The notes beneath the pieces are model-generated. The model made no database searches. It was given only the letters and a program-made list of their open reading frames with translations, and was not told the origin of the DNA. Of a DNA stretch of 64,000 nucleotides, positions 9,669 through 60,606 are shown piece after piece. The stretch's first letter is position 1; each line of letters opens with the position of its first letter. The stretch covers positions 1,237 to 65,236 of the forward strand of contig JAKAPS010000001.1 of NCBI GenBank assembly GCA_021806925.1, written 5' to 3'. This DNA is from a bacterium (GTDB taxonomy: Bacteria > Patescibacteriota > Dojkabacteria > JAKAPS01). The position numbers and the translations under genes are program-made.

Positions 9669-9672
9669 ATAA

Positions 9673-11162: not shown

Positions 11163-11164
11163 AA

Positions 11165-13887: not shown

Positions 13888-13892
13888 ATGAA

Positions 13893-14177: not shown

Positions 14178-14213
14178 TTTGTCAAATTAAAATGTATATA
14201 CTAGTTTATATTA

Positions 14214-15056: not shown

Positions 15057-15091
15057 ACATAAAACAGGGTTAGTTGTAGAAAATTAAAATA

Positions 15092-15724
15092 TCATCTCCG
15101 TCGATTATTATTTTTACTATATAAATCAACTATTAGAAGACCAATTCTTCTTCCAATATATGATGCTTCTATATGATCCGCAGTGATTGGTGTATCAGCA
15201 ATAACTTTCCTAAAAAATTTCATTATTTCTGTTCCATGTGCAAATGCAGTTTTGTATAACCGCCTATTACTACGATTCAATCCATAAAAAACAGCAGCAA
15301 ACATATGAGTCCAGAAATAGTAAGTATCACCGGGACTATCACTACAGTGATTGTTAAAAACTTCAAATTGAGCTATTTTCTTACTCCAAATAACCATATC
15401 GCTTTCAGTAACAGTTATGTTTGGATATGCTCTAGTATCAAGACCTCTTGCCATAATTCGTGTGGAAACAAATCCCAAGTGGAGTGCACCTAACAAGTCA
15501 TTATTAGTTATATCCATTAAAATTTCAAATTGTTTTGGAACCGTCACAATATCATCATAATTGCTAATCTTTTCTATGAATCTGTTAACGTCATATTCTG
15601 GAGGCAATACATCTTCAGGTATACTAGCACTATGGTAATCTGCAACTTGAATAATATATCCAAATAAGTTTATTTGGTTGTACGTTATATTTTTATTCCA
15701 GTATGGAATTTGGACACCTTCCAC
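15092..15724 (-). CDS. Hypothetical protein
   Basis: 210-aa ORF with no recognisable motifs. Confidence 0.35.
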   Translation of the reverse strand: MEGVQIPYWNKNITYNQINLFGYIIQVADYHSASIPEDVLPPEYDVNRFIEKISNYDDIVTVPKQFEILMDITNNDLLGALHLGFVSTRIMARGLDTRAYPNITVTESDMVIWSKKIAQFEVFNNHCSDSPGDTYYFWTHMFAAVFYGLNRSNRRLYKTAFAHGTEIMKFFRKVIADTPITADHIEASYIGRRIGLLIVDLYSKNNNRRR

Positions 15725-16009
15725 TAATTTTCAATCTCCCTTGAGTTTATAATATTAAAGAATGATTGAATTATTTCATTCTCTCTATTAAGTATCTCTG
15801 GTTTGCTAAAAAATTGTTCATTCCTGATCTGACTATAGATCCTCCTGTGTGTATCCACAATCTCTTTGTATGAACACAAACTAAAAAATGAATTCAATAA
15901 GAAGTTTATACTTCCCATTAAGTGTGATAATATCACTTTAATATAATAAATGTAATGCTCTTCTTATTAGCATAATATATATATTAATAGACTACAGAAA
16001 CATTAGAAA

Positions 16010-23734: not shown

Positions 23735-24982
23735 ATGGATGAAACTTTAGCTATACAAAATCCATGGTGGGAAGGAAGGCCATTGAAAAAATCAGTAGAA
23801 AGGAAAGAAGCACTATATGCCCTTAAACAAAGAGTAAAAAATAATAGAGTTTGTATGCTACTCGGTGGAAGGAGAGTTGGTAAAACGACCCTTATACATC
23901 AATACATTGGCGAATTATTGAATACTGGTGTTGAACCAAAAAATATATGCTATATTCTTCTTGATTCTAATGCATTCGAGAAGATATCAATATTTGAACT
24001 AATAAGAAAATACCGACAAATACACAACTTAAAAAGAGATGAGAATGTTTATTTATTTCTTGATGAAATTCAATATAAGGATAATTGGGAGCAATATATC
24101 AAAAATATTTATGATACTGAACCAAATATAAATGTTATGTTATCTGGATCAGCAAGTTTTAAAATTCATACTAAAACCTCATTTTTAACTGGACGATTTT
24201 CAATTCTTTATCTTTATCCCTTGTCATTTAAAGAATTTCTTCAATTTAAAAACATACAAATCTCCCTATCTGAAAAGTATATATATGAAAATGAGTTAAA
24301 TGAATATCTTCTAAAAGGAGGTTATCCTGAATATCTTTTGACTGAAGATTATCAATACTTTCCAAATCTGGTTGACAGTATAATCTATAAGGATTTTGTC
24401 GAATATTTCAATATAAAGAATCTAAACATAGTAAAAGATTTACTTAAGCTTATTGCTGATAGAACTGGATCTCATACGAGTCTTTCAAAATTAGGAAAAA
24501 TATTATCAATAGCCAAGGAAACAGTAAGAGATTATGTCTTTGCACTAAAGGAAACATTTACTATTTATGAATTACAAAGATATGCTACATCAAGAAATGA
24601 AAGGATTTACTTTCCCAAAAAATATTATATAAATGATAATGGTTTATTATTTAACTTGAGCGGTAAGTTTAATAAAGGGCAAGTTGCAGAGCAAACACTT
24701 TTTGATTTCTTATATAAAAAGTATAATGAATCATTGTACTTTTATTATTACGATGGTATAGAGATAGATTTTCTTATTAAGGACGCTGATGGAATTCAGT
24801 TAATTGAATCTAAATATATTAATGATGTAGAAGAATTCGATTCGAAATTACTTGTTAAAGCTATGGAGACATTGAAAGTTAGTAAGGCTGTTGTAATAAC
24901 AGAATCTCTTGAAAATACAATAGAATTTAGTAATAAGTCTATAGAATATATTCCCCTATGGAAATATATTCTTTCTCTGTAA
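23735..24982 (+). CDS. AAA+ ATPase of the AAA_14/DUF4143 family
   Basis: Walker A GGRRVGKTTL, Walker B LFLDEIQ and the characteristic C-terminal DUF4143-like region. Confidence 0.8.
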   Translation: MDETLAIQNPWWEGRPLKKSVERKEALYALKQRVKNNRVCMLLGGRRVGKTTLIHQYIGELLNTGVEPKNICYILLDSNAFEKISIFELIRKYRQIHNLKRDENVYLFLDEIQYKDNWEQYIKNIYDTEPNINVMLSGSASFKIHTKTSFLTGRFSILYLYPLSFKEFLQFKNIQISLSEKYIYENELNEYLLKGGYPEYLLTEDYQYFPNLVDSIIYKDFVEYFNIKNLNIVKDLLKLIADRTGSHTSLSKLGKILSIAKETVRDYVFALKETFTIYELQRYATSRNERIYFPKKYYINDNGLLFNLSGKFNKGQVAEQTLFDFLYKKYNESLYFYYYDGIEIDFLIKDADGIQLIESKYINDVEEFDSKLLVKAMETLKVSKAVVITESLENTIEFSNKSIEYIPLWKYILSL

Positions 24983-25664: not shown

Positions 25665-26165
25665 ATGAACAGTATATACGATAAATTAAATGAAAAGATA
25701 TTCACAAAAAATGAGCTTGAAAATCTTGTCATTGATATTGAAAAATTAATAAAAAAATTAGATCAAAAATATACTGAAGAAGAGTTAAAGACAATCATAA
25801 ATGAAACAATAAGACAAAAGAAATTTGCTAATATATTTCTTGCAAGTATAAAGGTCAAATCTGGAATGACACCTGAAAAGATGCAGGATCTTGATAAGAA
25901 GCTTCATGATTTACCAAATACGAGAAAATCAGTCTCAATAATGACTGCAATTCCTATTTTAAATGAAGATATGGAATTTTTTGCTCAAATGATTCAAGAG
26001 AAAGATAGTTCTCCAATACTAATTAATTATAGTGTAGATTCATCATTAATAGGAGGTATTAAAGTAAAAGCACAGAAATACATATATGATTTATCTTTGA
26101 AAACGCATTTGGAGAAATATAAAGTGGAATGGTTGAAATTAATAAAACGACATAATGAATCATGA
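25665..26165 (+). CDS. atpH: F0F1 ATP synthase subunit delta (OSCP)
   Basis: 166 aa, C-terminal GGIKVKAQKYIYDLSLK typical of delta, and operon position. Confidence 0.7.
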   Translation: MNSIYDKLNEKIFTKNELENLVIDIEKLIKKLDQKYTEEELKTIINETIRQKKFANIFLASIKVKSGMTPEKMQDLDKKLHDLPNTRKSVSIMTAIPILNEDMEFFAQMIQEKDSSPILINYSVDSSLIGGIKVKAQKYIYDLSLKTHLEKYKVEWLKLIKRHNES

Positions 26166-27785
26166 ACGATCAAGATGATATCACTAGACTCTCTAATAAT
26201 ATTCCATTAGATGATTTTGAGCCTGAAATAACTGAAATAGGCGAAGTAGACTATATTGGTGATGGAATATGCAGAATAACAGGACTTCCCAATGCAAGAA
26301 TGGAAGATATAGTTAGGATTGAGGCAAAGGGCGAAGATGTACTAGGACTGATACTTGGGTTAAATGAAAATTATGTTGAGACAGTAATACTTGGAGATTT
26401 TTCAAAAATATCAAAAGGTGATGTTGTATCATCAGCAAAAAAAAGAATAAAGATACCATCAGGAGAAGAGGTATTTGGTAGAGTAATTGACCCACTTGGT
26501 AAGGCGATTGATGGAAACGGCGAACTAAAATCAAGAAAAATGGTTCAGATTGAAAATCCTGCACCTATGGTTAATGAAAGAGAACAAATTGTTGACCAGA
26601 TACGCACAGGAATACTTGTAGTAGATTCAATCATTCCCGTAGGTAAAGGACAAAGAGAATTAGTAATTGGAGATAGAAAATCTGGAAAAACTACTCTTGT
26701 TCAAAATATAATAATAAATCAAAAAGGTAAAGGTATTTTCTGTATATATGTCTCAGTACTTGGTAAAAAAGCTATGTTAAAGGGAATATATGAGACACTC
26801 TTAAAAGAAGGATGTATGGACTATACCGTAATAATTGCAGCAACATCTGATGACCTTCCATCAATGAGCTACATTGCACCGTACAGTGGATGTGCAATTG
26901 CAGAAAGTTTAATGAAACAAGGAAAAGACGCTTTAGTAATTTATGATGACCTTTCAAAACATGCAAAAGCATACAGACAAATGTCACTTCTGTTAAAAAG
27001 ATCTCCAGGAAGAGATGCATATCCAGGTGATATATTCTACCTTCATTCAAGACTTCTTGAAAGAAGTGCAAAATTATCAAAAGAACTTGGTGGGGGCAGT
27101 TCAACTGCTTTTCCAATGGCAGAAACTCAGTCAGGAGATATTTCAGAGTTTATTACAACAAATTTGATGAGTATAACTGATGGACATATATACCTTGATG
27201 TTAATTTAATGCATGAAGGTATATTGCCAGCTGTAGATAGCGGTTTTTCTGTTTCAAGAATTGGAGGTAGTATACAAACAAAACTGCTTCGAAAACTCGG
27301 AGAAATGGCCAGTAAATCACTTCAAAGATACAATGAGGTGAAATCCTTTGAAAATATAAATACGGAGATTTCTGAAGAAACTGAACGAGAACTAAAAAGA
27401 GGTAAAAGAGTATTGGAAATATTTAATCAACCAAGTAGTTTAAATATGTCACTTGCTGAAGAAGTTCTATCGCTTTTTATTGTATGTGCAGGGTTATATG
27501 ATGATATTGAACTAATTGATGTAAGAAAAATAAAGATTGAAGTAATTAATTTTTTGAGGCATGAAGATAATGTAACACTCCGAGATAAACTCAGCAGTGG
27601 AGACACAAGCTATGATGAACTAGAAGGAGAAATAAAACAGATGTTTTCTAAAGAATTCTTAATGAGCTTACTAAAAAGCGATGAACCTGTAGACTCAACA
27701 AACAACAAAACAGAAGATATACAAAATATTAGTGAAAAAACTAATAACACAGATACAAGTGAACCGATAAAGGAGGAAAACAAGG

Positions 27786-27802
<17 letters not shown>
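26162..27802 (+). CDS. atpA: F0F1 ATP synthase subunit alpha
   Basis: Walker A GDRKSGKTT plus extensive alpha-subunit motifs. It carries an acidic C-terminal extension. Confidence 0.9.
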
Positions 27803-30162
<2,360 letters not shown>

Positions 30163-43628: not shown

Positions 43629-44768
43629 TTACAAAAGTATTTTATCAAGTGTTAGTAATGCTTCTTTAAACGGAATAATATCAATACCATCTATATACTG
43701 CATTACACTACCCCCATATATAACATGACATATAGCTGACGGATAATCCTTCCTGAATATCTTAAGATTTCTAATATCATTTGATGATATATTTCTTTTA
43801 CTCTTAATTTCGAAAGCATGAAGCTTATTATCATTGTATGCAATAAAATCCACCTCTACACCGCTTTTTGTCCTGTAATAATACAACTTATACCCTAGCT
43901 GCAAGTAATCATTGATTGCAAGTAAATTTTGAAAAAAAAGACTTTCTAATGCAATACCGCCTATTTCCTCAGGTTTATCAAATACACCATTTGGTCTTAT
44001 TGCTCTATATATTCCTACATCAAAAAAATAAAATTTACTATGGTTTATTAACCGTCTCTTCGCCTTTTTTGAAAAAAAAGGCAATCTTAAACCAACTAAC
44101 AGATCCTCAAGTATATTAAAATAAATTTCTACAACTTTCCTACCAACTGATGATTCTCTTCCAACCTCAGAAATATTTAACACTGAACCTTGTGAGAAGC
44201 TTGCAGCTTCTAAAAATCTTGAGAAAGATCCAATATTACGAGTGATCCCCTCTTGAATTATCTCTTGTTGCAGATATGTTTTAACATAATCTGATATATA
44301 CTTTTTCATATCTTCCTCATAAAATACTGATGGTAATCCACCAAATTCCAAGTAATTTTTCAGAGATAATCTCTCCCCCAATTCAATAGCAGTAAGTGGA
44401 TACATAAAGTATGTTAATGCCCTTCCACCTAGTAGGTTCTGTCCGCTTTTTCTTAGTTTCCTTGCACTAGAACCAGTTAATATAAATTTGTATTTCTCTA
44501 CCTCTATTAGACGATGCACCTCATTTAGTAATTCTGGGACCATTTGGATTTCGTCAATTATTATCCAATCTTTAAAATCTTGTTTAATAAAATCTGATAA
44601 TCTTGAAGGATTAGCAACAAGCCTTGTATATGTTTCTGAGTACAATAGGTCTATGTATATTGCGTTAGGAAATGTATTTTTAACCCATGTTGTTTTACCA
44701 GTCCCCCTTGCTCCAAATAAAAAGAAACTCTTGTTGGAAGGGAATTTTTTAAGTAGTCTTGTATACAT
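43629..44768 (-). CDS. AAA+ ATPase of the AAA_14/DUF4143 family (second copy)
   Basis: Walker A FGARGTGKTT, Walker B IIIDEIQ and a DUF4143-like C-terminus. The start is uncertain; the ORF track extends it to 44897. Confidence 0.75.
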   Translation of the reverse strand: MYTRLLKKFPSNKSFFLFGARGTGKTTWVKNTFPNAIYIDLLYSETYTRLVANPSRLSDFIKQDFKDWIIIDEIQMVPELLNEVHRLIEVEKYKFILTGSSARKLRKSGQNLLGGRALTYFMYPLTAIELGERLSLKNYLEFGGLPSVFYEEDMKKYISDYVKTYLQQEIIQEGITRNIGSFSRFLEAASFSQGSVLNISEVGRESSVGRKVVEIYFNILEDLLVGLRLPFFSKKAKRRLINHSKFYFFDVGIYRAIRPNGVFDKPEEIGGIALESLFFQNLLAINDYLQLGYKLYYYRTKSGVEVDFIAYNDNKLHAFEIKSKRNISSNDIRNLKIFRKDYPSAICHVIYGGSVMQYIDGIDIIPFKEALLTLDKILL

Positions 44769-44934
44769 ACTAGCATAGTATAACACACAAATACGGAGAA
44801 ATGGAATGGAAAATTCCAAAATGCCTGCCAAAATGGAGTTAGCGATTCCATTTTGACATAATTTTACATCTATAAAAAACTGCAATAAATCCACCAATTA
44901 CATGGTAAAGTCGATTATTATACGCATTATACCC

Positions 44935-45204
44935 CTATTTTATAGTGTTTGATCTATTTATAACTTCTAGTGGTTGTTTTCTTCCACCAGCAATATTTAA
45001 TATATCAAAAGGGTCCTGAATGTATGTAAATACTATCGTGTATAGAATAATAAAAACAGGAACATAAATTGTTATTGCTACAATAAAATGATATATGGAA
45101 ATAAAGCCAAAATAATTAAATATTTTACCACCAAATACATAAAATACGACTAGAAATAAAATAACAATTAATGCTTCTATTATACAACCAATTTGATTTT
45201 TCAT
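44935..45204 (-). CDS. Small membrane protein, hypothetical
   Basis: 89 aa, two TM helices. Confidence 0.25.
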   Translation of the reverse strand: MKNQIGCIIEALIVILFLVVFYVFGGKIFNYFGFISIYHFIVAITIYVPVFIILYTIVFTYIQDPFDILNIAGGRKQPLEVINRSNTIK

Positions 45205-47303
45205 TCTTCTATATTCCAGTTTATATTATCACCAGATTTTATATCCCCTTGTATTATTTTTTCAACAATAGGGTCTTCAATTTTCTCCTCAACCATTCTC
45301 TTTAATGGTCTTGCACCATATTTATCAGAAATGCCATTCTTTGCAATAAATTCAATTGATTCATCTGGTACTGTCAATGTTATATTCTTATCTTTTAATC
45401 TACTAGCTAAATCTTTAATAAATATCTCAACTATTTTCTTTCCAGCATCAACATTTAGTTTGTTGAATTTAATTATCTTATCAATTCTATTTAAAAATTC
45501 AACTCTAAAGAATGTATTAAGCTTATACTCATCAACAATATTTGACGTCATAATAATAATTGTGTTCTTAAAATCAACAGTTTTACCCTGTCCATCAGTA
45601 AGTCTACCATCATCAAGAACTTGCAAAAATATATCAAATATTTTTGGATTTGCTTTTTCGACCTCATCAAGAAGAATTAAAGAATATGGTTTCTGCAACA
45701 CTTTATTTGTTAATTGGCCGCCTTCCTCATATCCTACATAACCTGGAGGAGCTCCAACCAATCTATCAACAGTATGCGTCTCTGAGTATTCACTCATATC
45801 AATTCTAATCATTGCACTTTCATCCTTGTATATTACATTGGCAAGTGCTTTTGCTAATTGAGTTTTTCCAGTACCAGACGGACCAAGAAATAGGAATGAT
45901 CCAATGGGTCTCTTTGGATCTCTTAATCCAGCACGTGACCTCTTTATAGTCTTTGATACTGCCTCAACTGCTTCATCCTGACCAATAACACTCTTTTCAA
46001 GTATATTTTCTAGATTCTGCAAATCCTGTATTTCCTGTAAAGAAATATCCTCAATAGGTATATTTGTTTTTTGAGCAAGAACAAATTTCATAGTACTTAT
46101 AGATATCTCGTCTTCATTCTTTATTTTTGATTGAGAAATTGAATCATCAATAAGAGAAATTGCACTCGCAGGTAAAAAAGTATCATGTATGTACCTTTTT
46201 GCAAGTGAAATAGCTAAATCTGAAAATCCATTTTCAAATTTCACACCTTTTTCTCTCTCAATGTATGAAACAACAATTTTTTTCACTAAGTCAGCCTCAG
46301 GTTCATCCATAAAAACAATTTCACTATTCTTTATCAAATTCTTGTTATTCTTCATCATCAATTGATATAGAGAGAAATCAATTGGAATTACTGCGTAAAA
46401 TGGAGATAATAGGATATCATTTATTAAGTCTTCATAATCCTCTTTAAGTGTCCTGTTATCAGATCCGTTTGATTCAAGATTTTCTAAATATATAACTACC
46501 TTATTCTTGTTATTTAGTACACTTGATATTTTCTTTATATTATATATTCTTTCTAAATAATCTGGTTTTGATAAATCAACATCATATATTATCGATCCCT
46601 TGAATATGGAATCATTACCATCTGAAATATTTGCAAGCAGGTATTTTGTTGATTTCTTACCTATTCCGTCATTTCCAACTAATAGTACATTTCTTTTTGT
46701 GTTTTTGTAGAATATCCTTATAATCTGTTCTGTTATATTATCCCTTGGAATATACGATTCATCAGCTTGTAAATTAATTAATGGATTATCCTCATCACTT
46801 TCTTTGTTATTAAGAAATTCTGATGAATATATATCAGTAGATTTTTCATTTGGTATATTTAGAGATTTTGCAATGAAATTAGAATCAATATCAATATATT
46901 TTTTTCTTGCTAGTGCATATAGAAGAGTACAAGGCGTAACAAATTTGTAATTTAAAGTTATTGATATATTGGTAGCATCAATTAAGCATTCATTAACCGA
47001 CTGTTTCATCGTTATTTTATCTATATTCTTCAATCCATTCTTCCCAGATGACTTTGATTCGTCATTTATCTTGTTACTACAATTACTTATGAATGAATTT
47101 TGGAATCCCATCTTCCTTACTATATCAATAGATTCTGTATCTATATTAAGTATTGCATATGCAATTACATCCTCATTTATCTCTTTAATTTTCTTCCTAT
47201 AGCAAATAGAACCAGACATAGATAATACGTCAAGCAATGTTTCAGATAAGAATGCTGTTAAATCTATAATATTAAAACTTTTAACTCCATCTCTATTATC
47301 CAT
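45201..47303 (-). CDS. ClpC/ClpB-family AAA+ chaperone with Clp_N domain, degenerate D1 and intact D2
   Basis: D2 region VIGQDEAVEAVSKTIKRSRAGLRDPKRPIGSFLFLGPSGTGKTQLAKALA...LLDEVEKANPKIFDIFLQVLDDGRLTD...IIMTSN. The D1 Walker A reads GNDGIGKKS, which is non-canonical. Confidence 0.8.
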   Translation of the reverse strand: MDNRDGVKSFNIIDLTAFLSETLLDVLSMSGSICYRKKIKEINEDVIAYAILNIDTESIDIVRKMGFQNSFISNCSNKINDESKSSGKNGLKNIDKITMKQSVNECLIDATNISITLNYKFVTPCTLLYALARKKYIDIDSNFIAKSLNIPNEKSTDIYSSEFLNNKESDEDNPLINLQADESYIPRDNITEQIIRIFYKNTKRNVLLVGNDGIGKKSTKYLLANISDGNDSIFKGSIIYDVDLSKPDYLERIYNIKKISSVLNNKNKVVIYLENLESNGSDNRTLKEDYEDLINDILLSPFYAVIPIDFSLYQLMMKNNKNLIKNSEIVFMDEPEADLVKKIVVSYIEREKGVKFENGFSDLAISLAKRYIHDTFLPASAISLIDDSISQSKIKNEDEISISTMKFVLAQKTNIPIEDISLQEIQDLQNLENILEKSVIGQDEAVEAVSKTIKRSRAGLRDPKRPIGSFLFLGPSGTGKTQLAKALANVIYKDESAMIRIDMSEYSETHTVDRLVGAPPGYVGYEEGGQLTNKVLQKPYSLILLDEVEKANPKIFDIFLQVLDDGRLTDGQGKTVDFKNTIIIMTSNIVDEYKLNTFFRVEFLNRIDKIIKFNKLNVDAGKKIVEIFIKDLASRLKDKNITLTVPDESIEFIAKNGISDKYGARPLKRMVEEKIEDPIVEKIIQGDIKSGDNINWNIEE

Positions 47304-51050: not shown

Positions 51051-52778
51051 ATGTATATAAAGGATGTTATAAAAGATGCTAAGCAATATGCCAGGCATCT
51101 TGGAAAAATGCGAGTTAGCCCAAATATTCTTCTTTTTGCAATGTTGAAAGATAAAAAAATAGAAGCTGATTTCGTAATTAACAATTCAAATATAAATTTT
51201 TTAAAATATATACTTAATCCGAATGTTCTAAAAACAACAAATTCTCCTAGAAACATTCAGCTTTCAACTTCTCTTCAGCGTATTGTATCAGGATATAAGA
51301 GGAGTGACTCGGCATATGATCTGTTTATACGTCTACACAATGAGAAATACATACGGGATATATTAAGTATTGCTGATTATTCATATAAACAGAATGAGGA
51401 TTTGTATGGTTTTTTCATAAAAAAATATTGTAACAAATTACAGACAGGTAAAGTACTTGATAAGCAAGTTCCTGTATATAGGAAAATGCTTAGGGCATCA
51501 AAGCACCATAATATATCTCTAATAACTTCAAGCGGAAATATGTCGAGCGAAGTCATAAAAAATTTTGCAAAATATGTTGATAAAAAGAGTACAATATTTT
51601 CATTTGATTTATTCAAATTACTTTCTGAGTCTGAGGGCAGTCTATTTTCTATTGTAAGCGGAATATTTAGTGAGATTGATAACAACTATATATATATCCC
51701 TAATTTTCTACAGACAGTGTATTGGATTAAGGCACTCAACTACAAGGACCTATATATGTTGCTTCTTACAAAATCAAAACAATGTAAAATAATAACTAAA
51801 GTATCAAGAAATAGACTTGATAGAGATATTTATGCTGAAGGGAATATAATGAATATGTTCTTTATAAATTCACCACAAGTAACTTTTAATGAATTAAGGG
51901 ATATATTATGCGAAAAGGCAAAAGAGTATGAACTATTCTATGACATCAATATAACATCAAAGGAAATTGATGATGCAATAAAATCAAGTATTGAGTTTTC
52001 AAAATATTTATCCCAACCAGCAAGTTCGATTAAAATGCTTTCAAGAACTGCACTGATTAAATATTCTAATGAGGAAGAAAAGTTTAATATAGATCACAAC
52101 AATGATAATATACAGAACAATGTAAATAAATTATTAAAATTAAAAACAATTCTTCTTGATAATATAATTGGACAAAATCAACAAATAGATAGCTTTGTAG
52201 AATCCTTGGGAAAGGCTAATCTTAACAATGATAATATGATTCTATTGAATTACATATTTGAAGGAGAGTATGGCGTTGGTAAATTCACTTTAGCCAGATT
52301 AACTGCTAACTTCCTTTTTGGTCAGGACTCTATATGTTTTATTGATTTAAGTAATTATGCTAAGACACCATACAAATATAAGTTTGAATATGATTTAAAG
52401 AGAACATTAGAGAGTTTTTATGGTGGAATAATATATTTAGAAAACTTTGATCAAATTGATATGGATGAGATAAATCCGTTAGAATTAATAAAGAAATTAT
52501 TAAAAGAAATACCTCAAAGTTCATATATTCTTGGATGTATTGTTATTGCATCGATTCATAATAATCTACAGAATTTAAAGAATAGTATAAGTATAATCAA
52601 CAACTTCGATAAAATAATAATATTCAATAAATTATCAATTCGAGATCTAGAGAAAATATCTGTAATGGAAACTGTTAAATCAAAGAAATATATAAAAACA
52701 GTTCGTAACCCTCTATTTCTTTCTGTAAATGCAGAGATTAACAATGCACATGATATAAAGGCAATGACACTTAAATAA
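51051..52778 (+). CDS. ClpB/ClpA-like protein with Clp_N-like N-terminus and a degenerate (probably inactive) AAA+ module
   Basis: Clp_N-like AKQYARHLGKMRVSPNILLFAML. D2-like DNIIGQNQQIDSFVESLGKA with Walker A GEYGVGKFT (Thr changed to Phe), Walker B IIYLENFD (DE changed to EN) and an SRC-like region. Confidence 0.45.
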   Translation: MYIKDVIKDAKQYARHLGKMRVSPNILLFAMLKDKKIEADFVINNSNINFLKYILNPNVLKTTNSPRNIQLSTSLQRIVSGYKRSDSAYDLFIRLHNEKYIRDILSIADYSYKQNEDLYGFFIKKYCNKLQTGKVLDKQVPVYRKMLRASKHHNISLITSSGNMSSEVIKNFAKYVDKKSTIFSFDLFKLLSESEGSLFSIVSGIFSEIDNNYIYIPNFLQTVYWIKALNYKDLYMLLLTKSKQCKIITKVSRNRLDRDIYAEGNIMNMFFINSPQVTFNELRDILCEKAKEYELFYDINITSKEIDDAIKSSIEFSKYLSQPASSIKMLSRTALIKYSNEEEKFNIDHNNDNIQNNVNKLLKLKTILLDNIIGQNQQIDSFVESLGKANLNNDNMILLNYIFEGEYGVGKFTLARLTANFLFGQDSICFIDLSNYAKTPYKYKFEYDLKRTLESFYGGIIYLENFDQIDMDEINPLELIKKLLKEIPQSSYILGCIVIASIHNNLQNLKNSISIINNFDKIIIFNKLSIRDLEKISVMETVKSKKYIKTVRNPLFLSVNAEINNAHDIKAMTLK

Positions 52779-52882: not shown

Positions 52883-54457
52883 ATGAAACAGCATGTTGTT
52901 CCACAGAATATTATGAGTGTGGAATTTAAAATCATTGGGGATTTGACTATTCATCAGTTTGTATATATTGCAATCGCTGGTGGTATATGTTTTGTTCTTT
53001 ATGTTGCCTATCTGCCAGGAATAATAAAATGGATGTTAATTATCATTGTAGGATTCATAGGAATACTTGTTGCATTAGCGAAGGTTAACGAAAGACCATT
53101 TGATGTTTGGATAAGCAATTTTATAGTTGCTATTCTATTACCTACAGAACGTGTATGGAAGAAGGAATATACTATCCCAGATTTTCTAGTATCACAAAAA
53201 AAACTCGATTCATTGAAGCCAATTAAAATTGATCAAAGGAATTCATACAAAAAACTTAATAATTATCTCCATTCAATCAACATGCAAACTGATGCAATTA
53301 GTAGATACAATACTAAAATGGATATTGAAGAGATAAAATTTCTTAACTCTATAAAAGATACAATTGACGGATTAAATAAAAAAGAAACTATTGCTGAAAA
53401 AAACAATTCAGCAATACTACCTATCAGTGCAAATATATATACAAATCCTGCTGGTGCTAAAATAAATGATAGCAATGTGCTGAGTAATAATCCAATCAAT
53501 GATACGAATACAGAATCTAGCAATGAAGAGAAAATAAAAAATATTGTACCAACGGAATCGGCATCTACATTACAAGAGGAATCTAACGAAAATGATACTA
53601 CAAACAATATAGCGTTAGATGAAGACAAGCATAATGCTGTTGGAATAGATAAACATGATATTAATTCTGTTGGTTCAGACAATTTTGATATTAATGCTGT
53701 TGGTTCATACAATATTGATATTAAAGACATTATTACTAATTTAACACAGAAAGATGATACAAATTCAGATAGAAATAACATAGCAGTGGATAATTCTATT
53801 GGAGATGATTCTAATAAATTAGCAGATTTACCTCCAATAGATATTAATACCTTGCTGACTGAAAGAAAGGATTATGATACCAAAAGCGATAAAAATGATA
53901 GGTTATTAAAAGTTGAAGAAGAAAAGATTGAGAATTTAGAGATTGAAAATAAGATTCTTAAAGAGGAAATTGAAAATATAAAGAAAACAATTGGTAATAA
54001 GACAGAAAGTATAGCTAAACAAAATGAACAAGTCCAACCTAGTAAACAAGAGGATACTGATATAAAGACTCTAGATAAAGTAAATACACCTGAGAATGAA
54101 GGTGAAAGTTTAGTTGCATCAAGTGAAGAGCTAAATAAAGCAATAGGATATATGCCTGATTATACAAAGCTACCTAATATAATTTATGGAGTTGTTCTTG
54201 ATACACAACTGAAGCCAATTACAGATGTTGTAGTAATAATAAAAAATAATAAAAACGGTAATATAATTAGAGCATTAAAAACAAACTTTCTTGGACAATT
54301 TTATTCACGTACACCTTTGCAAAATGGAGAATATATAATTGAAGCAAACAAGGAAGGAATTGTTTTTATTCCTACAAGTATTATAATTGATTCAGATAGA
54401 ATAAAACCTATCATTATAAAACCACAATCAGTGAATGAAGATATTAAATTAATATAA
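52883..54457 (+). CDS. PrgI-like (VirB3-analog) membrane domain fused to a long Asn/Asp-rich and coiled-coil region with a C-terminal beta-sandwich (CarboxypepD_reg-like) domain
   Basis: The N-terminus (SVEFKIIGDLTIHQFVYIAIAGG...ALAKVNERPFDVWISNFIVAIL) matches the PrgI family pattern (two TM helices plus the NGRPF-like motif). Heptad-like EEKIENLEIENKILKEEIENIKK and VVLDTQLKPITDVVVIIKNNKNGNIIRALKTNFLGQFY also occur. Confidence 0.5.
   Translation: MKQHVVPQNIMSVEFKIIGDLTIHQFVYIAIAGGICFVLYVAYLPGIIKWMLIIIVGFIGILVALAKVNERPFDVWISNFIVAILLPTERVWKKEYTIPDFLVSQKKLDSLKPIKIDQRNSYKKLNNYLHSINMQTDAISRYNTKMDIEEIKFLNSIKDTIDGLNKKETIAEKNNSAILPISANIYTNPAGAKINDSNVLSNNPINDTNTESSNEEKIKNIVPTESASTLQEESNENDTTNNIALDEDKHNAVGIDKHDINSVGSDNFDINAVGSYNIDIKDIITNLTQKDDTNSDRNNIAVDNSIGDDSNKLADLPPIDINTLLTERKDYDTKSDKNDRLLKVEEEKIENLEIENKILKEEIENIKKTIGNKTESIAKQNEQVQPSKQEDTDIKTLDKVNTPENEGESLVASSEELNKAIGYMPDYTKLPNIIYGVVLDTQLKPITDVVVIIKNNKNGNIIRALKTNFLGQFYSRTPLQNGEYIIEANKEGIVFIPTSIIIDSDRIKPIIIKPQSVNEDIKLI
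53633..53722 (+). repeat. 3 x 30-bp in-frame tandem repeat (encodes NAVGIDKHDI / NSVGSDNFDI / NAVGSYNIDI)
   Basis: AATGCTGTTGG(A/T)..GATATT units, read directly. Confidence 0.75.
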
Positions 54458-54485
54458 AATTATAGAGAAAAAAATAAATTAAAAT

Positions 54486-55190
54486 ATGAAGAACCAAACA
54501 CATGCTTCAACACAAAGTCATCTTGATATAGAGGATATAAGGGATGATTTAGTTATTTTGAAAAATGGGAAAGTTGATCTTGTGCTTGAAACTACAGCAA
54601 TCAATTTCTCTCTTCTTTCAGAGATGGAACAGGATGCAAGAATAAATGGATTTGCTGGATTACTCAATTCATTGAATTTCCCATTACAAGTGTTTATACA
54701 CACTGAAAGTGTTGACATAACAAAGTACATTGCGAAAATTAAAGAATATAAGAAAAATGCAAAAAATGAAAAAATTGCATTACAAATTGATTATTATCTT
54801 GATTTTATTAAAGGATTAATTGAGAAAAATGAGGTGTTAGATAAAAGGTTTTTCTTAATAATTCCCTATTATCCAGAAACTTTAAAGAAAACAAACCCGA
54901 TAAAAACAGCCATGGGTAAAGAAGAGAGAATATTAAATATTGATGGATTGATTGAGAAAGCAAAAATTGAATTAATACAAAGGAAGGATACATTAATCAA
55001 ATTATTGCTTAGAATGGGGTTAAGAACAAAGCAACTAACAACCGAAGACCTTATAAATCTTTTCTATAAGCTATATAACAGTGACTCAATATCACTTAAT
55101 ACAATAAAATCACCAAAGGAGGATTTTCTTGCACCAATAGTATCTTCAGAGGTTGACTTTATATCTACAAATCCAAATGAAATAAATTAA
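54486..55190 (+). CDS. Protein resembling the N-terminal domain of VirB4/TraC-family ATPases (stand-alone)
   Basis: IEDIRDDLVILKNGKVDLVLETTAINFSLLSEMEQDARINGF follows the VirB4 N-terminal consensus (dG.l..v.e..g.nf.L.seeeq). There is no ATPase motif. Confidence 0.4.
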   Translation: MKNQTHASTQSHLDIEDIRDDLVILKNGKVDLVLETTAINFSLLSEMEQDARINGFAGLLNSLNFPLQVFIHTESVDITKYIAKIKEYKKNAKNEKIALQIDYYLDFIKGLIEKNEVLDKRFFLIIPYYPETLKKTNPIKTAMGKEERILNIDGLIEKAKIELIQRKDTLIKLLLRMGLRTKQLTTEDLINLFYKLYNSDSISLNTIKSPKEDFLAPIVSSEVDFISTNPNEIN

Positions 55191-55193
55191 AAT

Positions 55194-57188
55194 ATGAGCC
55201 AAGATGATACTAAAAACATTACATCACCTATAGTTAATAGTCCTGTAAAACCTACAACTAATAATAAAAAAAGTAATAAAGTACCTTTTATTGGAGCTAT
55301 CTCAGACATTATTGACATTGCAAGATTCTTCTTTTTTTCGCAAGGAAAATCAGATAACTCAGAGGTAATGATATCAAAAGAAGTATCTGAATTTAGTGAC
55401 GGAATTGTTACAGTTAGAGATATATTAGCTCCATCTTCTATTGAAGTAGATTTTGACTACATAAAAATTAATCAGAAATATTATAGAACATATTTTGCGG
55501 CGCTATTTCCTAGGTTTGTAAATGCAAATTGGCTTGCTCCATTAATAAACTTTGAAAGAACTATTGATATATCGATGTACTACTTTACTGTAGATTCAAG
55601 AGAAGTTATGCTCAAATTAAGGAGAAAAATTGCTGAAATGGAAGCAACATTGAATACACTTAATGAGCAAGGGAAAGTTCTTGATCCTAATGTAAAAGTT
55701 GCCTTAGAGGACGCAAACCTATTACAGGAGCAACTTGCGAAAGGTGAAGAGAAATTTTTTCACTTCTCTGTTTATATAACAATTCAAACTGACACTGAAG
55801 ATGAATTAAATAAATTTGGGAAGGAACTTGAAACTGTATTAAGTGCAAGCGGATTAATTATAAAATCTGCATACTTACAACAAGAATTTGCATTTCAATC
55901 AGTAATCCCTACAAATAATGATAAACTTATGGTTGTCAGAAATATGGATACTACATCAATAGCAACCACATTTCCTTTTATTTCATCAGATCTTTCCTCT
56001 GATTCAGGAATTTTATATGGAATAAATAAATATAACAAAGGATTAGTAATTTATGATAGGTTTTCAAATGAAAACTATAATACTGTAATTTTTGCTCGTT
56101 CTGGGGCAGGTAAAAGTTATTTAGCAAAACTTGAGGCACTACGCTCTTTAATGCTTGGTGTTGAGGTCATTATAATAGACCCTGAAAGAGAATATGAAAA
56201 GCTATGTACTGTTGTAGGAGGAAGTTACCTGTCATTTTCCCAGGATGGTGCAAGTAAAATAAATCCGTTTGACCTATCAGGAATATATGATACAGATGAA
56301 GATGAACTGAGATTTAAAATACTATCTCTTCATGGACTATTCCGTATCATTCTCGGGAATGGTAATAATGAGCAGTTAACTGCTATTGAAAGTGCTGTAC
56401 TAGATAAAGCAATAATAAACACGTATAGAGAAAAAGGAATTACAACTGATCCATTAACACAGAAGAAGGAGCCCCCTGTTCTTCAAGACTTATATAAGGT
56501 TCTTCTATCTATGGAAGAAAATGAATCTCAATCCCTTGCGAAAAGACTTGAGAAATTTATTACAGGTAGTGCTTCAGGTATTTTTGATAAAAAAACAAAT
56601 ATAGAAATAAACAATGAGTTCACAGTATTCTCAATTAGAGACCTTTCTGAAGAATTAAGACCTGCAGCAATGTATCTTATGCTTGATTACATTTGGACAA
56701 AAGTAAAAAAGAAAAAAAAGAAAAGGATACTTATGATTGATGAAGCATGGATATTGATGAAATATCCAGATAGCGCCCAATTTATAAATGGATTAGCCAA
56801 GAGGGCAAGAAAGTACTACCTTGGAGTAACAACCATAACTCAAGATGTAGAAGATTTCTTTGCTACAGATTATGGAAAGGCTGTTGTTAATAACGCTGCA
56901 ATGCAGATACTTCTAAAACAAAGCCCAAGTGCAATAAACAATATTCAAAAAGTATTCTTTCTTTCTGATGGTGAAAAAGATCTACTACTCAATTCAGCTC
57001 CAGGTGAGGGTTTGTTTTTTGCAGGAGCAAATCATGTTGCAATAACTATTAAGGCTAGTGAATATGAGCACAACTTAATAACAAGCAACCCACAGGATAT
57101 AATAAATCAAGAAAAAGAAGCTTTGAAAAATGAATATAAGAATTCGCAACAGCTGAATAATGGAACAATATCAAGAAGAGCAAACTAA
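55194..57188 (+). CDS. VirB4/TrbE/PrgJ-family ATPase (T4SS or Ced-type translocation ATPase)
   Basis: N-terminal domain with SDGIVTVRDILAPSSIEVDFDYIKIN...FHFSVYITIQ. Walker A FARSGAGKSYLAKL, Walker B ILMIDEAW and ITQDVEDFF. Confidence 0.8.
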   Translation: MSQDDTKNITSPIVNSPVKPTTNNKKSNKVPFIGAISDIIDIARFFFFSQGKSDNSEVMISKEVSEFSDGIVTVRDILAPSSIEVDFDYIKINQKYYRTYFAALFPRFVNANWLAPLINFERTIDISMYYFTVDSREVMLKLRRKIAEMEATLNTLNEQGKVLDPNVKVALEDANLLQEQLAKGEEKFFHFSVYITIQTDTEDELNKFGKELETVLSASGLIIKSAYLQQEFAFQSVIPTNNDKLMVVRNMDTTSIATTFPFISSDLSSDSGILYGINKYNKGLVIYDRFSNENYNTVIFARSGAGKSYLAKLEALRSLMLGVEVIIIDPEREYEKLCTVVGGSYLSFSQDGASKINPFDLSGIYDTDEDELRFKILSLHGLFRIILGNGNNEQLTAIESAVLDKAIINTYREKGITTDPLTQKKEPPVLQDLYKVLLSMEENESQSLAKRLEKFITGSASGIFDKKTNIEINNEFTVFSIRDLSEELRPAAMYLMLDYIWTKVKKKKKKRILMIDEAWILMKYPDSAQFINGLAKRARKYYLGVTTITQDVEDFFATDYGKAVVNNAAMQILLKQSPSAINNIQKVFFLSDGEKDLLLNSAPGEGLFFAGANHVAITIKASEYEHNLITSNPQDIINQEKEALKNEYKNSQQLNNGTISRRAN

Positions 57189-57416
57189 TATATATTCAAT
57201 TCTAAATTACTCTTTACAATGGATTTATTGATTCTGTCAAGCAATTAACTATTAATTCCATGAATAATAGATTCAGTACAAGCTTTTTATTCAAAAAAAG
57301 TAATCCTAGAAAAATATAATTAAAATTATCCTTATATACCCTGGTAAAATGAAATAGATTGCAAAAATAAATTTATTAATATAAACTTCCGCTAGAACAA
57401 AATAGAAAGGAAAAAA

Positions 57417-57698
57417 ATGAAAAATATATTTTTCCTTTCCCCAATAGTAGTGTATGCATCTGTATACACAATTCCCCAGCTGCAAAGTACTGTGAACAAC
57501 ATTACAGATACACTTTCATGGATTATTGGAAGTTGTATCGTGTTATTGATAACAAATTTTGGAATTCAATTTATTCTATCATCTGATAATCCGCAAGAAA
57601 GGGCTAAACTAAAGACTAAAATTGTTTGGTCAATAATCGGCCTATTCATAGTTATTTTTGCAAAAGATATATCTATATGGATACAAAATATTATATAA
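57417..57698 (+). CDS. VirB2/TrbC-like pilin candidate (small two-helix membrane protein)
   Basis: 93 aa: signal-like N-terminus, a hydrophobic helix, a short polar loop (SSDNPQERAKLKTK) and a second helix. It sits immediately after the VirB4-like gene. Confidence 0.35.
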   Translation: MKNIFFLSPIVVYASVYTIPQLQSTVNNITDTLSWIIGSCIVLLITNFGIQFILSSDNPQERAKLKTKIVWSIIGLFIVIFAKDISIWIQNII

Positions 57699-58756
57699 CA
57701 ACACAATTAAAGCAATTTGGAATTCTTATAAAGCTTATAGAAATAATAATTGTAATAATTATAACTACTGTTTACTACAACAATTCAAATATATTAAAGA
57801 ATAACTCATCAATAGCTTCTACACATATAAATAAGGCGACTAGTGCCACGTTAGTGGGTACTGGTCGTATTGGATCTGGAGCAATTTCAAGCACATGCTA
57901 TACAAGTTACTCAATTAATGTCTTAAGTGATGCTCTGGAGTTTTTAACATGTCAATTTAACAATATATTTGGAGAGTATGTGTTTTCCACTGAGAATTTA
58001 TTTAATAATAGTGAATTCACTATATTTGAATCAAATATACAGAATATGGCTCTATATTTAATTCCACTTGCAATAATTATTGTTACCTCAATTGAATTGC
58101 TAAAATATGTTGAAGGAAAAGGAGATAGCATTGTAAGCATCCTTTACGAATTTATATTAAATGTAATTTTAATAATAATCTTACCTAAAATATTTTCTTT
58201 GCTTATAGATTTCACAAATTCAATATCAAATTACTTCTCAAGTATTTCATTTAACAAAAGCACATCACTTGCTTCAAGTATTAATTCTGTATTTTTCGAG
58301 CAGAATTCATCAATACCAGGAATTGCACTTGATATACTTTGGATTTTCTTATTCTCTGCCATATTATTCATAACTGTATTCTTTCTATTCAGATTCATAT
58401 TTATATACTTGTCATATTCAGTTATCCTACTATTAATACCTTTTATAAATATAAAAATTGTTAAGAATTTGTTACTTTCAATTAGCGAAAAAACTATTCA
58501 ATTTATTCTAATTCAACCGATATTTATATTAAGCGTTAACTTCTTCCTGTTTATAGTAAAAACAAGCTCACTAAATGTTAACAGTATAATATTTACTTTA
58601 GCCCTTGTTTTATCTCTGTCATTTATACCAGTATATTTTACAGGATTAACAGTTTCAAGGTTCTCAAGCATATCAAATTCTAAAATTAGAGGTGCAGTAA
58701 GAGGCAGTATTGTTAGATTGGATATGATTGCTAACGATATAATTAAATCTCTATGA
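57677..58756 (+). CDS. VirB6/TrbL/CedA-like polytopic membrane protein
   Basis: One N-terminal TM, an external loop of about 100 aa, then at least five TM helices. The start is set at the internal Met (track start 57626). Confidence 0.45.
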   Translation: MDTKYYITTQLKQFGILIKLIEIIIVIIITTVYYNNSNILKNNSSIASTHINKATSATLVGTGRIGSGAISSTCYTSYSINVLSDALEFLTCQFNNIFGEYVFSTENLFNNSEFTIFESNIQNMALYLIPLAIIIVTSIELLKYVEGKGDSIVSILYEFILNVILIIILPKIFSLLIDFTNSISNYFSSISFNKSTSLASSINSVFFEQNSSIPGIALDILWIFLFSAILFITVFFLFRFIFIYLSYSVILLLIPFINIKIVKNLLLSISEKTIQFILIQPIFILSVNFFLFIVKTSSLNVNSIIFTLALVLSLSFIPVYFTGLTVSRFSSISNSKIRGAVRGSIVRLDMIANDIIKSL

Positions 58757-58968
58757 ATTATAGAATTCAAATTCTTATTGCAATAATTATTTTAGGATTA
58801 CTTGCACAAGATATTTTTATTAGGATTTTAGTATTAATATCATGCATGTTTTATTTAACAACTGTTATTCGTTATAGAGCCAAATTACTTATATCCTATA
58901 TACCAGTCATTCTTATGTTTTTATTTAGAAGAAAAATATATGTTAAAAAATATAGAAGAGATATTTAA
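58753..58968 (+). CDS. Small two-TM membrane protein
   Basis: 71 aa, overlaps the upstream gene by 4 nt. Confidence 0.3.
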   Translation: MNYRIQILIAIIILGLLAQDIFIRILVLISCMFYLTTVIRYRAKLLISYIPVILMFLFRRKIYVKKYRRDI

Positions 58969-59368
58969 TATAAAACAGATTAATGCAAATGATGTACTTT
59001 TCAAGGATAATTCTCATTGCTATATATATAAAATAAGGAATGTTGAAAACGAGATGCTACTAAAGTTTCTTAAAATGACAACTAAAGAGGCTACAATATA
59101 TTTTTTTAAGGAAAACTATATATTCGACACATACATTGAAAAATTGCTTGATAACAATCTAAATGAAAGGCATCTTGGATTTCTTCTTCAATATATTTCA
59201 TACTTGAATAAGACGAATATACAGGGACTTGAGATCTTTTTACTTGTTAAGCAGGATAATGGTTCAGTCAACTCAATTGATGAATATATATATAAATTGA
59301 GAATAGATATACAGAAGACAGATACAAAAACAACACACGACTTCTTTGTAAAATTGTTATGCAATTAA
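58940..59368 (+). CDS. Hypothetical protein immediately upstream of the second VirB4-family ATPase
   Basis: 142 aa, soluble. Confidence 0.3.
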   Translation: MLKNIEEIFNIKQINANDVLFKDNSHCYIYKIRNVENEMLLKFLKMTTKEATIYFFKENYIFDTYIEKLLDNNLNERHLGFLLQYISYLNKTNIQGLEIFLLVKQDNGSVNSIDEYIYKLRIDIQKTDTKTTHDFFVKLLCN

Positions 59369-60606
59369 CATATAAAATATATAAAGACATATCATCATTT
59401 TTCAAATTTATAGGAATAGTTAGAAGAGAAAAGAGAACAAGCGTTGAATTATATAAAATTGATACACCTACTTTGATATTAAAAGAATATTTTGACAGGA
59501 TAGTTATAAATTCGCAGAGCTATTATCAATTCTTAATAATTCCACGGGATGAATCTATTGATAATATTATTAATGATTTAATTAATTATTCATTTAAAAA
59601 TATCAAGTTGAACATCACATTGTATAATTCGTCAGAAATTAATAGAAAGATCATAAAAAATATAAATAAAATAAGAGAAGATGTTATTACTGGAAATGAG
59701 GAGCTTGAGGTAGCTAAATTCAACATTGAAGACAAATTTAATCAAGTAAAGGAATATAGAAAAAATGATATTGTATTTTCAGTAAACATTGTATTAACAA
59801 AAAATGAAAAAACTTCATCCTTTGCAAATCTAATAAAATCTAAATATGGTGCAAATTCATACCAAATATATTTTACAAACATACAAAACTTTAGAAAAGT
59901 TATTGAAAGTAATCATAATGACTCACTAACACAATACCCAATTCTTTTAAATAAATCATACTTCTATAAATCAGGAATATATCTTGGTAATAATATTAAA
60001 GTTAATACCCCTATATTTCTAGATATATTCTCAATGCAGAATTACAACATGATTGTATTAGCTCGTTCTGGTGCTGGAAAGACTACTCTTGCAAAAGAAA
60101 TTATTATCAGAGAAATTTTCAACGGTGTGAAAATATTTTGTATTGACCCAGAAAATGAATATACAAAATTGAAAGATATATTTGATGAAAAATTCTTTGA
60201 AATTATTGAAGACGTTTCATACTTCTTAGATAATATAGAAAAGGAATCTAAAGGTAAGACACTTATATTTATTGATGAAGCACATAAGTATTTAGATGAT
60301 AAAAACATATCAAAGAAGATTAGACACGTTATAAAGACTGGAAGGAAATATAACATTGGAGTAGTGTTAATTACCCAAGATGTAATTGATTTTTTACAGA
60401 ATAGAAATACTAAAACTGCAATTCTAAATTCTGGATGTATATTCCTTCTAAAACAACATGAGTATATCGCCACACTCCTTGGAAAGGTTTTTGGACTAAG
60501 TAGCGATGACTTAAATTTTCTTATTCATTCAAATCTTTCTGAGGTCCTTATAAAATCTGACTATACTAACGAGTACATGTCATTTAGTAAACTATTTGAT
60601 GTATAA
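59359..60606 (+). CDS. Second VirB4-family ATPase paralog (short form)
   Basis: Walker A VLARSGAGKTTLAKEI, IFCIDPENEY, Walker B LIFIDEAHKY and LITQDVIDFL, all parallel to the ORF at 55194. Confidence 0.7.
   Translation: MQLTYKIYKDISSFFKFIGIVRREKRTSVELYKIDTPTLILKEYFDRIVINSQSYYQFLIIPRDESIDNIINDLINYSFKNIKLNITLYNSSEINRKIIKNINKIREDVITGNEELEVAKFNIEDKFNQVKEYRKNDIVFSVNIVLTKNEKTSSFANLIKSKYGANSYQIYFTNIQNFRKVIESNHNDSLTQYPILLNKSYFYKSGIYLGNNIKVNTPIFLDIFSMQNYNMIVLARSGAGKTTLAKEIIIREIFNGVKIFCIDPENEYTKLKDIFDEKFFEIIEDVSYFLDNIEKESKGKTLIFIDEAHKYLDDKNISKKIRHVIKTGRKYNIGVVLITQDVIDFLQNRNTKTAILNSGCIFLLKQHEYIATLLGKVFGLSSDDLNFLIHSNLSEVLIKSDYTNEYMSFSKLFDV

Follow-up and report, generated by a model that had tools for sequence, protein, structure and literature searches.

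The stretch of DNA analysed here, referred to throughout as the window, comprises 64,000 nt of contig JAKAPS010000001.1 (assembly GCA_021806925.1). Positions 52883–60606 of the window are filled by eight consecutive plus-strand open reading frames (ORFs), g1–g8, recovered in the ORF scan as an earlier, sequence-only reading of this DNA had listed them. The region is very probably a vertically inherited chromosomal type IV secretion system (T4SS) locus of the Patescibacteria type, belonging to a Dojkabacteria-like candidate phyla radiation (CPR) bacterium. Most likely it carries the core motor triad of such systems twice, first as a conserved set of PrgI/VirB3-like, TrsD-like and VirB4 proteins (g1–g3) and again as a predicted miniaturised set (g6–g8). 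Genes g4–g8 overlap or abut one another, and the sole sizeable gap in the cluster is the 228 bp between g3 and g4. Start and stop codons overlap at the g5/g6, g6/g7 and g7/g8 junctions, which suggests translational coupling. The window is AT-rich (GC about 0.24–0.34) and the cluster region, at about 24–31 %, matches the rest of it, without a compositional break except for a modest dip to 0.24 at 58–60 kb. A promoter and terminator scan was uninformative in such AT-rich DNA, returning 72 promoter-like sites against 77 expected.

The first three genes are a PrgI/VirB3, TrsD and VirB4 triad, in an order that recurs across the CPR. Gene g1 (52883–54457, +; 524 aa) encodes a PrgI/VirB3-like membrane protein that matches Pfam family PF12666 (PrgI) over residues 6–91 with 34.7 bits (cutoff 27, E 2.6e-8), and a transmembrane (TM) scan placed two TM helices within residues 26–65. 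Behind the helices lie a hypervariable low-complexity linker, then a short coiled-coil-like stretch and, at the C-terminus (about residues 420–515), a conserved beta-sandwich-like domain, in which residues 434–498 give weak CarboxypepD_reg and NOMO1-like matches. Conservation between g1 and its orthologs in two related loci, L001 and L002, is restricted to the N- and C-terminal parts. Three tandem 30-nt repeats at 53632–53724 in the linker encode NAVGIDKHDI-like decapeptides, and the length and composition of the linker are completely different in the orthologs.

Gene g2 (54486–55190, +; 234 aa) encodes a TrsD/TraC-like protein, a stand-alone homolog of the VirB4 N-terminal domain. It matches the NCBIfam models NF045975 (positions 98–285, E 1.2e-7) and NF041427, TrsD (E 2.8e-7), and an identical protein has a precomputed PF26593 TraC-like match in public annotation. 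Among the roughly 140 CPR loci fetched, nearly all have a TrsD-like gene between PrgI and VirB4, and the complete PrgI-TrsD-VirB4 order is found in most. Gene g3 (55194–57188, +; 664 aa) encodes a canonical Patescibacteria-clade VirB4 ATPase, scoring 375 bits against NF045971, the CD1110-family VirB4 model (cutoff 325). Its best solved relative by sequence is the Thermoanaerobacter VirB4 (PDB 4AG5, E 1.2e-53). Homologs of g3 number in the thousands, and the best 120 are 58–75 % identical, several of them named Candidatus Dojkabacteria or WS6. In a neighbour-joining (NJ) tree with 200 bootstraps, g3 falls inside the canonical CPR VirB4 clade (87 % support). An exact 18-nt repeat, AAATAAATTAAAATATGA, is located at 54472–54489 and again at 55180–55197, spanning the translation-start regions of g2 and g3, and through it the two genes have identical upstream contexts and an identical first codon. 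The repeat may reflect matched translation initiation, or chance in AT-rich DNA.

Gene g4 (57417–57698, +; 93 aa) encodes a VirB2/TrbC-like T4SS pilin. The protein matches PF18895 (T4SS_pilin) with 51.9 bits (cutoff 26.6, E 8e-14) and additionally PF04956 (TrbC, E 3e-4) and NF045849 (E 6e-8). A signal-like N-terminus and two hydrophobic helices are evident in the TM scan, and a protein identical to g4 has public T4SS_pilin annotation. Profile searches thus agree with the sequence-only reading on the PrgI-like, VirB4-N-domain-like, VirB4 and VirB2-like pilin assignments. Gene g5 (57677–58756 from an ATG, 359 aa, or from a TTG at 57626, 376 aa; +) encodes a polytopic membrane protein with about 6–7 hydrophobic/TM segments in the TM scan; the public gene call for an identical protein uses the 359-aa start. 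A VirB6-like identity had been proposed for it and is accepted here as the probable one, on transitive evidence only, because the g5 family aligns with TrbL-positive proteins. Specifically, g5 and its two orthologs align with the positional homologs from stand-alone modules (described below) at 97.5 % in hhalign (E 8.8e-12, 248 columns), and PF04610 (TrbL/VirB6) is matched by five of the eight members of this combined family, the best match being at E 2.4e-8. A weak TrbL_3 match is precomputed for the ortholog in L001. No VirB6 was found when the g5-family profile was searched against PDB sequences.

The last gene of the cluster, g8 (59359–60606, +; 415 aa), encodes a second, shortened VirB4-family ATPase with intact catalytic motifs. 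It aligns with g3 in two BLASTP blocks, residues 45–285 with 87–351 (E 6e-15) and 302–397 with 512–607 (E 6e-11), which cover the N-domain plus Walker A and then Walker B through the ITQD motif. Between Walker A and Walker B, g8 is about 160 aa shorter than g3. Its catalytic motifs, namely Walker A, the IDEAHK of Walker B, the RK pair and ITQD, are preserved, and judging from them the protein is apparently still able to hydrolyse ATP. The best profile matches of g8 are VirB4 families (98 bits for NF045975, 80.6 and 74.5 bits for others), with 48.5 bits against P-loop_TraG. Both the aligned blocks and the VirB4 profiles bear out the earlier suggestion that the second ATPase is a shorter paralog of the first. 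A VirD4-type coupling protein was considered for g8 and rejected; there is no TM segment, and no match at E up to 1 to the Pfam coupling-protein families PF10412, PF02534 and PF12696.

The cluster had also been labelled Ced-like, after the archaeal Ced-type DNA import systems, and the possibility that its ATPases are of the HerA/FtsK kind had been raised. Weak matches of this sort do exist: g8 scores 30.9 bits with CedB, 25.9 bits with FtsK_SpoIIIE and 34.8 bits with DUF87/HerA, and g3 scores 32.4 bits with CedD; import is likewise a function that has been discussed for Patescibacteria T4SSs (PMC11665869). However, the cutoffs of the CedB (NF041017, 700 bits) and CedD (NF053655, 600 bits) models lie far above these scores, and VirB4 models score far higher (375 bits for g3 and 98 bits for g8, against 15–35 bits for FtsK, HerA and Ced models with g8). 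Among PDB entries, both ATPases are closest to VirB4 4AG5, which g8 matches with E 2.5e-12 as opposed to E 1e-4 for HerA. In addition, the ATPases are accompanied by PrgI, TrsD and a VirB2-like pilin, proteins foreign to Ced systems. On profile scores and PDB matches, membership in the Ced, HerA or FtsK families is rejected and retains next to no probability, and the Ced-like label is dropped.

Between g5 and g8 are two genes whose products had been listed as a small 2-TM protein and a small soluble protein. Both genes are real, but they are probably not miscellaneous extras, being instead shrunken PrgI-like and TrsD-like genes. The product of g7 (58940–59368, +; 142 aa) is a small soluble protein and a predicted shortened TrsD-like (VirB4 N-domain-like) protein. 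When only the three lineage sequences are aligned by hhalign with TrsD, the g7 family reaches 86 % (E 5e-6); adding the sequence from locus L089 raises this to 96 %, and including every positional homolog raises it to 99.4 % (E 6e-22). The positional homologs in L089 and L090 have precomputed weak PF26593 TraC-like matches. The product of g6 (58753–58968, +; 71 aa) is a small membrane protein that ends in a basic RRKxYVK tail and has orthologs of 68 and 73 aa in the same position in L001 and L002. It is probably a truncated PrgI/VirB3-like protein; the g6 family aligns with PrgI at 48 % with L089 added and at 87 % (E 4e-6) with all positional homologs. Support for g6 is moderate, and it is the weakest link of the second triad. 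Controls for these alignments, made with unrelated families from the same loci, gave at most 1.1 % for the extended families and at most 0.3 % for g7, and an earlier control of g5 against the pilin family gave 2.2 %. Thus g6, g7 and g8 most likely form a second, miniaturised PrgI-like, TrsD-like and VirB4-like triad. If the g6 and g7 homologies hold, there are two motor triads in the locus, one conserved and one small and fast-evolving, a reading with good support that falls short of proof.

The full set of eight genes, in unchanged order and followed by the same downstream RNase H, Wzz and holA genes, is found in L001 (GCA_025450075.1) and in L002/L003, which represent two close relatives of the window genome. 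A total of 139 loci with a canonical VirB4 were scanned, from genomes and metagenomes, of which 90 have at least 4 kb of downstream sequence. A second VirB4-family ORF is present in three of the 139, namely L001–L003 from these two relatives, and the earlier remark that two VirB4 paralogs in one locus are atypical therefore stands. Identity between the window genes and their orthologs in the two relatives is about 70 % for g3, 55–57 % for g4, 51–55 % for g2 and 45–49 % for the flanking RNase H and Wzz. The corresponding values are 28–33 % for g5, 24–31 % for g6, 20–21 % for g7 and 31–33 % for g8, whose orthologs are 522 aa (L001) and 479 aa (L002) long.

Figures such as these raise the question of whether g6–g8 are a functionless, decaying remnant of a duplicated or acquired triad. 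Ortholog identities of 20–33 % compare with about 70 % for g3, g8 has lost about 160 aa with respect to g3, g7 and g6 are shorter than TrsD and PrgI, and the g8 cluster has a single member in a 15-billion-protein collection. Nevertheless, the g6, g7 and g8 ORFs are intact in all three genomes, and this at an overall identity of 30–43 % within the g8 clade. Invariant throughout that clade are Walker A (GAGK[ST]), the DEAH of Walker B, the RK pair and [IV][TS]QD. Intact ORFs together with invariant catalytic motifs argue against pseudogenes, as do the overlapping starts and stops from g5/g6 to g7/g8, with the coupling that they suggest. Decay without function is consequently regarded as improbable.

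As a block, g4–g8 are homologous, gene for gene, to stand-alone five-gene modules on other CPR-like contigs, here called second-type modules. Each consists of a pilin, a VirB6-like protein, a small TM protein, a protein of ~150–180 aa and a VirB4-like ATPase of 540–730 aa, in an order identical to that of g4–g8. Modules of this type were found in L005, L089, L090, L099, L111, L118, L132, L141 and L006–L008, and several of these loci (L006–L008, L099, L111 and L118) have the PrgI-like and TrsD-like parts joined in one protein. In Walker B, g8 and the second-type ATPases share the IDEAHK motif. The modules differ from the window locus in that no canonical triad is located within their flanks and in that their ATPases keep the helical insert, g6–g8 being smaller and more diverged. 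Locus L089 is the best outside match of hidden Markov models (HMMs) built from the lineage only (pilin, 77 bits; VirB6, 86 bits, E 1e-24), and its ATPase cluster is the best outside BLAST match of the L001 ortholog of g8.

Homologs of g8 were collected by exhaustive profile search and locus scans; word-indexed searches with g8 by itself (8 matches) and with an alignment of its family (17 matches) missed known orthologs. In the NJ tree the g8 clade is monophyletic (99 %) and falls outside the canonical CPR clade. Walker B reads IDEAHK in the g8 clade and the second type as opposed to DEAW in canonical and DPANN VirB4s, and the g8 clade scores slightly higher with the second-type HMM, at 143 as opposed to 118 bits. 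A recent in-place duplication of g3 was rejected as the source of g8, given its position outside the canonical clade and its different Walker B signature. Because of the tree position, the IDEAHK signature and the HMM preference, acquisition of a five-gene module is favoured as the origin of the second triad, but is not proven. Extreme rate acceleration may lie behind the divergence of g8 from g3, and the NJ distances are saturated at about 2 substitutions per site, leaving the deep placement of g8 unsupported.

The existence of such modules also bears on how many machines the locus encodes. Genes g1–g3 could belong to one T4SS, its pilin and VirB6 being encoded elsewhere or shared, with g4–g8 an independent five-gene mini-T4SS that landed adjacent to it. 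In L005, L089, L099, L111, L118, L132 and L141 the unit stands alone without a canonical triad within its flanks, the L090 module is accompanied by a coupling-protein-like gene and ParA, and conversely the Dojkabacteria locus L004 has the canonical triad alone with no pilin or VirB6 nearby. The Walker B motif and HMM preference that g8 shares with the second type point in the same direction. However, the eight-gene block is co-oriented and is kept as a unit in the relatives despite the 228-bp g3/g4 gap, and no second pilin or VirB6 that could serve g1–g3 is visible in the window. Tree support for joining g8 with the second type is only 18 %, and in a roughly 1-Mb genome under reductive pressure the sharing of components is at least as plausible. 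Two separate machines are therefore a possible arrangement but a doubtful one, and a single platform shared by both triads is preferred in what follows.

Several second-type modules have features of their own. The L089 module (7003–10629 of that locus; GCA_021810605.1, JAJZIL010000010.1; GC 24.7 %) is compact, with proteins of 83, 327, 98, 173 and 542 aa, and is a candidate minimal pilus-bearing monoderm T4SS. The L090 module (5339–15789; ERZ25039498 contig_31243) encodes a 108-aa pilin-like protein, a 700-aa VirB6-like protein, a 273-aa PrgI/TrsD-like protein and a 613-aa ATPase, followed by a C39-like peptidase, an 813-aa coupling-protein-like gene with TrwB_AAD_bind and TraG-D_C matches (both weak) and ParA; a helix-turn-helix gene is located upstream. 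The L090 contig is CPR-like, and its module may be a true conjugative element. The modules of L006–L008, L011 and L015 encode a 94-aa pilin, a VirB6-like protein of about 590 aa (426 aa in L006), a 269-aa PrgI/TrsD-like fusion, a 707–732-aa ATPase and two more membrane proteins, and those of L007 and L008 adjoin restriction-modification genes. The L011/L015 module proteins come from records labelled ‘uncultured Gammaproteobacteria’, yet their sizes, order and HMM scores match what is seen in the Roizmanbacteria locus L008; the taxonomic labels of these records may be wrong. No description of second-type modules as a class was found in a non-exhaustive search of the literature. An exhaustive search of 1.84 billion representatives with the second-type profile returned about 20 proteins above ~300 bits, 18 besides the two query sequences. 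The second type and the doubled-triad variant are both rare.

The cluster is flanked by genes for UvrD/PcrA, an ATP-grasp enzyme, a Clp-like AAA+ protein (g0), RNase H, Wzz and holA. Elsewhere in the window, the scanned ORFs encode an aminoacyl-tRNA synthetase, QueA, glycosyltransferases, histidine kinases, F-ATPase subunits, sigma-70, LepA and the like. No coupling protein, relaxase or integrase is present among the 29 flanking ORFs scanned, a set that covers all those of at least 300 aa and few shorter ones. The cluster itself contains neither a coupling protein nor a relaxase. Likewise, tRNA and Rfam scans gave nothing in or adjoining the cluster, and a search for att-like flanking repeats, a check that the sequence-only reading had proposed, gave only short, imperfect AT-rich matches and no convincing direct repeats. 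Since the gene order and the downstream RNase H, Wzz and holA are common to the relatives, the cluster is taken to be a resident chromosomal locus and not a mobile element.

Membership of a conjugative or integrative element, whether complete or a remnant, would fit with the homologs being conjugation proteins and with the best NCBIfam models being named ‘conjugal transfer’, and related second-type modules can adjoin restriction-modification genes or a coupling protein. It does not fit with the housekeeping flanks and their shared RNase H, Wzz and holA order, with a cluster GC in line with that of the window, or with the lack of an integrase, relaxase or coupling protein among the ORFs scanned and of an adjacent tRNA or flanking direct repeats. 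Additionally, the 58–75 % identity of g3 to its best 120 relatives, Dojkabacteria included, stands beside the published finding that VirB4 is mostly inherited within Patescibacteria classes (PMC12102498). A mobile element is thus largely refuted and very improbable, in agreement with the earlier description of the cluster as a T4SS-derived translocation apparatus rather than a conjugative element.

Directly upstream of g1 is g0 (51051–52778, +; 575 aa), a degenerate Clp-D2-like AAA+ protein whose membership in the cluster is uncertain. It has no Pfam match, is 24 % identical (E 2e-8) to a ClpB-like protein encoded at 45201–47303 (−), as a degenerate paralog of its D2 AAA+ module, and has an altered Walker A (GVGKF). 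Orthologs of g0 are located directly upstream of PrgI in L001 and L002 and are absent from that position in L004 and in more distant CPR loci. Further away, a 673-aa ORF at 21459–23480 (+) has a Big_1 Ig-like match and a C-terminal match to ATP-synthase subunit c. The genes for the F-type ATPase subunits alpha, gamma and beta (26162–30162) lie downstream of it, and the ORF may represent either an unusual fusion or a call that is too long. Two paralogous AAA_14 + DUF4143 ATPase genes, at 23735–24982 (+) and 43629–44897 (−), are about 20 kb apart.

With the inner-membrane complex of R388 as a template, VirB4 hexamers would sit at the cytoplasmic membrane, docked on VirB3 and VirB6, and ATP-driven VirB4 would extract pilin from the membrane to form a tube or pilus across the monoderm envelope. 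Because neither a relaxase nor a coupling protein is present among the ORFs scanned, the system would not be expected to conjugate, and contact-dependent transfer of macromolecules between epibiont and host appears more likely. For the second triad, the guess preferred here, at about even chances, is that of an accessory or specialised motor sharing one pilin and VirB6 platform with the first. A bolder proposal, and an unlikely one, is a composite machine in which VirB4 has been split into two specialised motors. The conserved g1–g3 would then drive one step, e.g. substrate transfer, and the small g6–g8, tied to the pilin and VirB6, would drive another, e.g. pilus biogenesis or host-specific docking; the second motor could also replace the missing coupling protein or VirB11. 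If true, the composite machine would show, in a natural system, VirB4 giving rise to a new T4SS energiser.

Several points weigh against the reading of the locus as a resident T4SS with an added second motor. The g8 clade joins the second-type clade (itself supported at 76 %) with the 18 % bootstrap value given above. AlphaFold2 models of g8 (from a five-sequence alignment; mean predicted local distance difference test score, pLDDT, of 48) and of g7 (from a single sequence; pLDDT 46) are too poor for fold assignment. A Foldseek search with the low-confidence g8 model ranked VirB4 first, with TM-scores of only 0.35–0.41, which is weak corroboration. In profile searches g5 itself has no Pfam match, and with the three lineage sequences alone the g6 family aligns with PrgI at 46 % (E 2e-4). 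The visible part of the genome is 64 kb, and a coupling protein or relaxase at a distance is possible. Whether the two triads serve one machine or two is a matter of pure inference, and the function of every Patescibacteria T4SS rests on inference as well.

What is new in the locus is the probable miniaturised second triad, genes g6–g8, a lineage-specific variant of a known system. In one Dojkabacteria-like lineage, two versions of the core motor triad would share one operon-like block. In the one species in which this was tested, epibiotic growth requires the Patescibacteria T4SS. Compact five-gene modules could help to establish which parts a monoderm pilus-bearing T4SS minimally needs, and modules this small may lend themselves to structure prediction or reconstitution. 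Practical consequences are modest, since the variant is confined to a few uncultivated genomes.

The sequence-only reading had called the cluster ‘minimal’. An unrecognised system of that sort is not upheld; the cluster is the known chromosomal Patescibacteria-clade T4SS, derived from monoderm MPF-FATA systems, and not a new kind of system (PMC12102498, PMC10633639). VirB4 has been reported in 2,417 of 3,035 Patescibacteria genomes, and the majority of these proteins group in a monophyletic clade that lies within MPF-FATA (Quinonero-Coronel et al. 2025, Microb Genom, PMC12102498). TrsD, PrgI/VirB3, VirB6 and VirB2-like pilins are encoded near virB4 in a chromosomal context, relaxases are almost absent, and coupling-protein genes are rarely located near virB4 (PMC12102498). 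Since their component set matches the published descriptions, g1–g5 are assigned to this known system. The window locus resembles it in the order of PrgI/VirB3, TrsD and VirB4, in the VirB2-like pilin and the probable VirB6 homolog adjoining virB4, and in a chromosomal housekeeping context with no nearby relaxase or coupling protein. The proposed miniaturised second triad sets it apart from 136 of the 139 canonical loci.

Southlakia epibionticum requires a cluster of this kind, SEML1_0006–0019, in order to grow epibiotically (Wang et al. 2023, Cell, PMC10633639). The cluster contains PrgI (SEML1_0010), SEML1_0009, VirB4 (SEML1_0008), pilins and hydrolases, with no recognisable coupling or relaxase proteins (PMC10633639). 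Reviews regard the function of Patescibacteria T4SSs as unsettled, effector export and uptake of host material being among the suggestions (PMC11665869, PMC12857230). Unlike the Southlakia cluster, the window locus has a single pilin instead of a pilin array. It is also without an adjacent peptidoglycan hydrolase, and its PrgI has a roughly 430-aa extension ending in the conserved beta-sandwich-like domain. A miniaturised triad such as that proposed downstream of VirB6 in the window is absent from those rows of the Southlakia gene table that were compared.

Monoderm MPF-FATA systems (pCF10 Prg/Pcf, pGO1 Trs and CTn2/CD1110-type integrative and conjugative elements) share with the window locus PrgI, TrsD (in the pGO1 subclass) and a CD1110-family VirB4. 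They have in addition a coupling protein, relaxase, oriT, VirB8-like protein, hydrolase and adhesins, and no VirB2-like pilin, whereas the window locus has the pilin and is without DNA-processing parts among the ORFs scanned. The R388 (Trw) system is more distant in architecture, being diderm with an outer-membrane core, VirB11, VirD4 and a single VirB4 gene. Yet its inner-membrane complex (PDB 7O41, 8RTB) holds VirB3, VirB4 and VirB6 together, TrwK/VirB4 chains are among the top Foldseek matches of the poor g8 model, and this complex provides the template on which the assembly proposed here is modelled.

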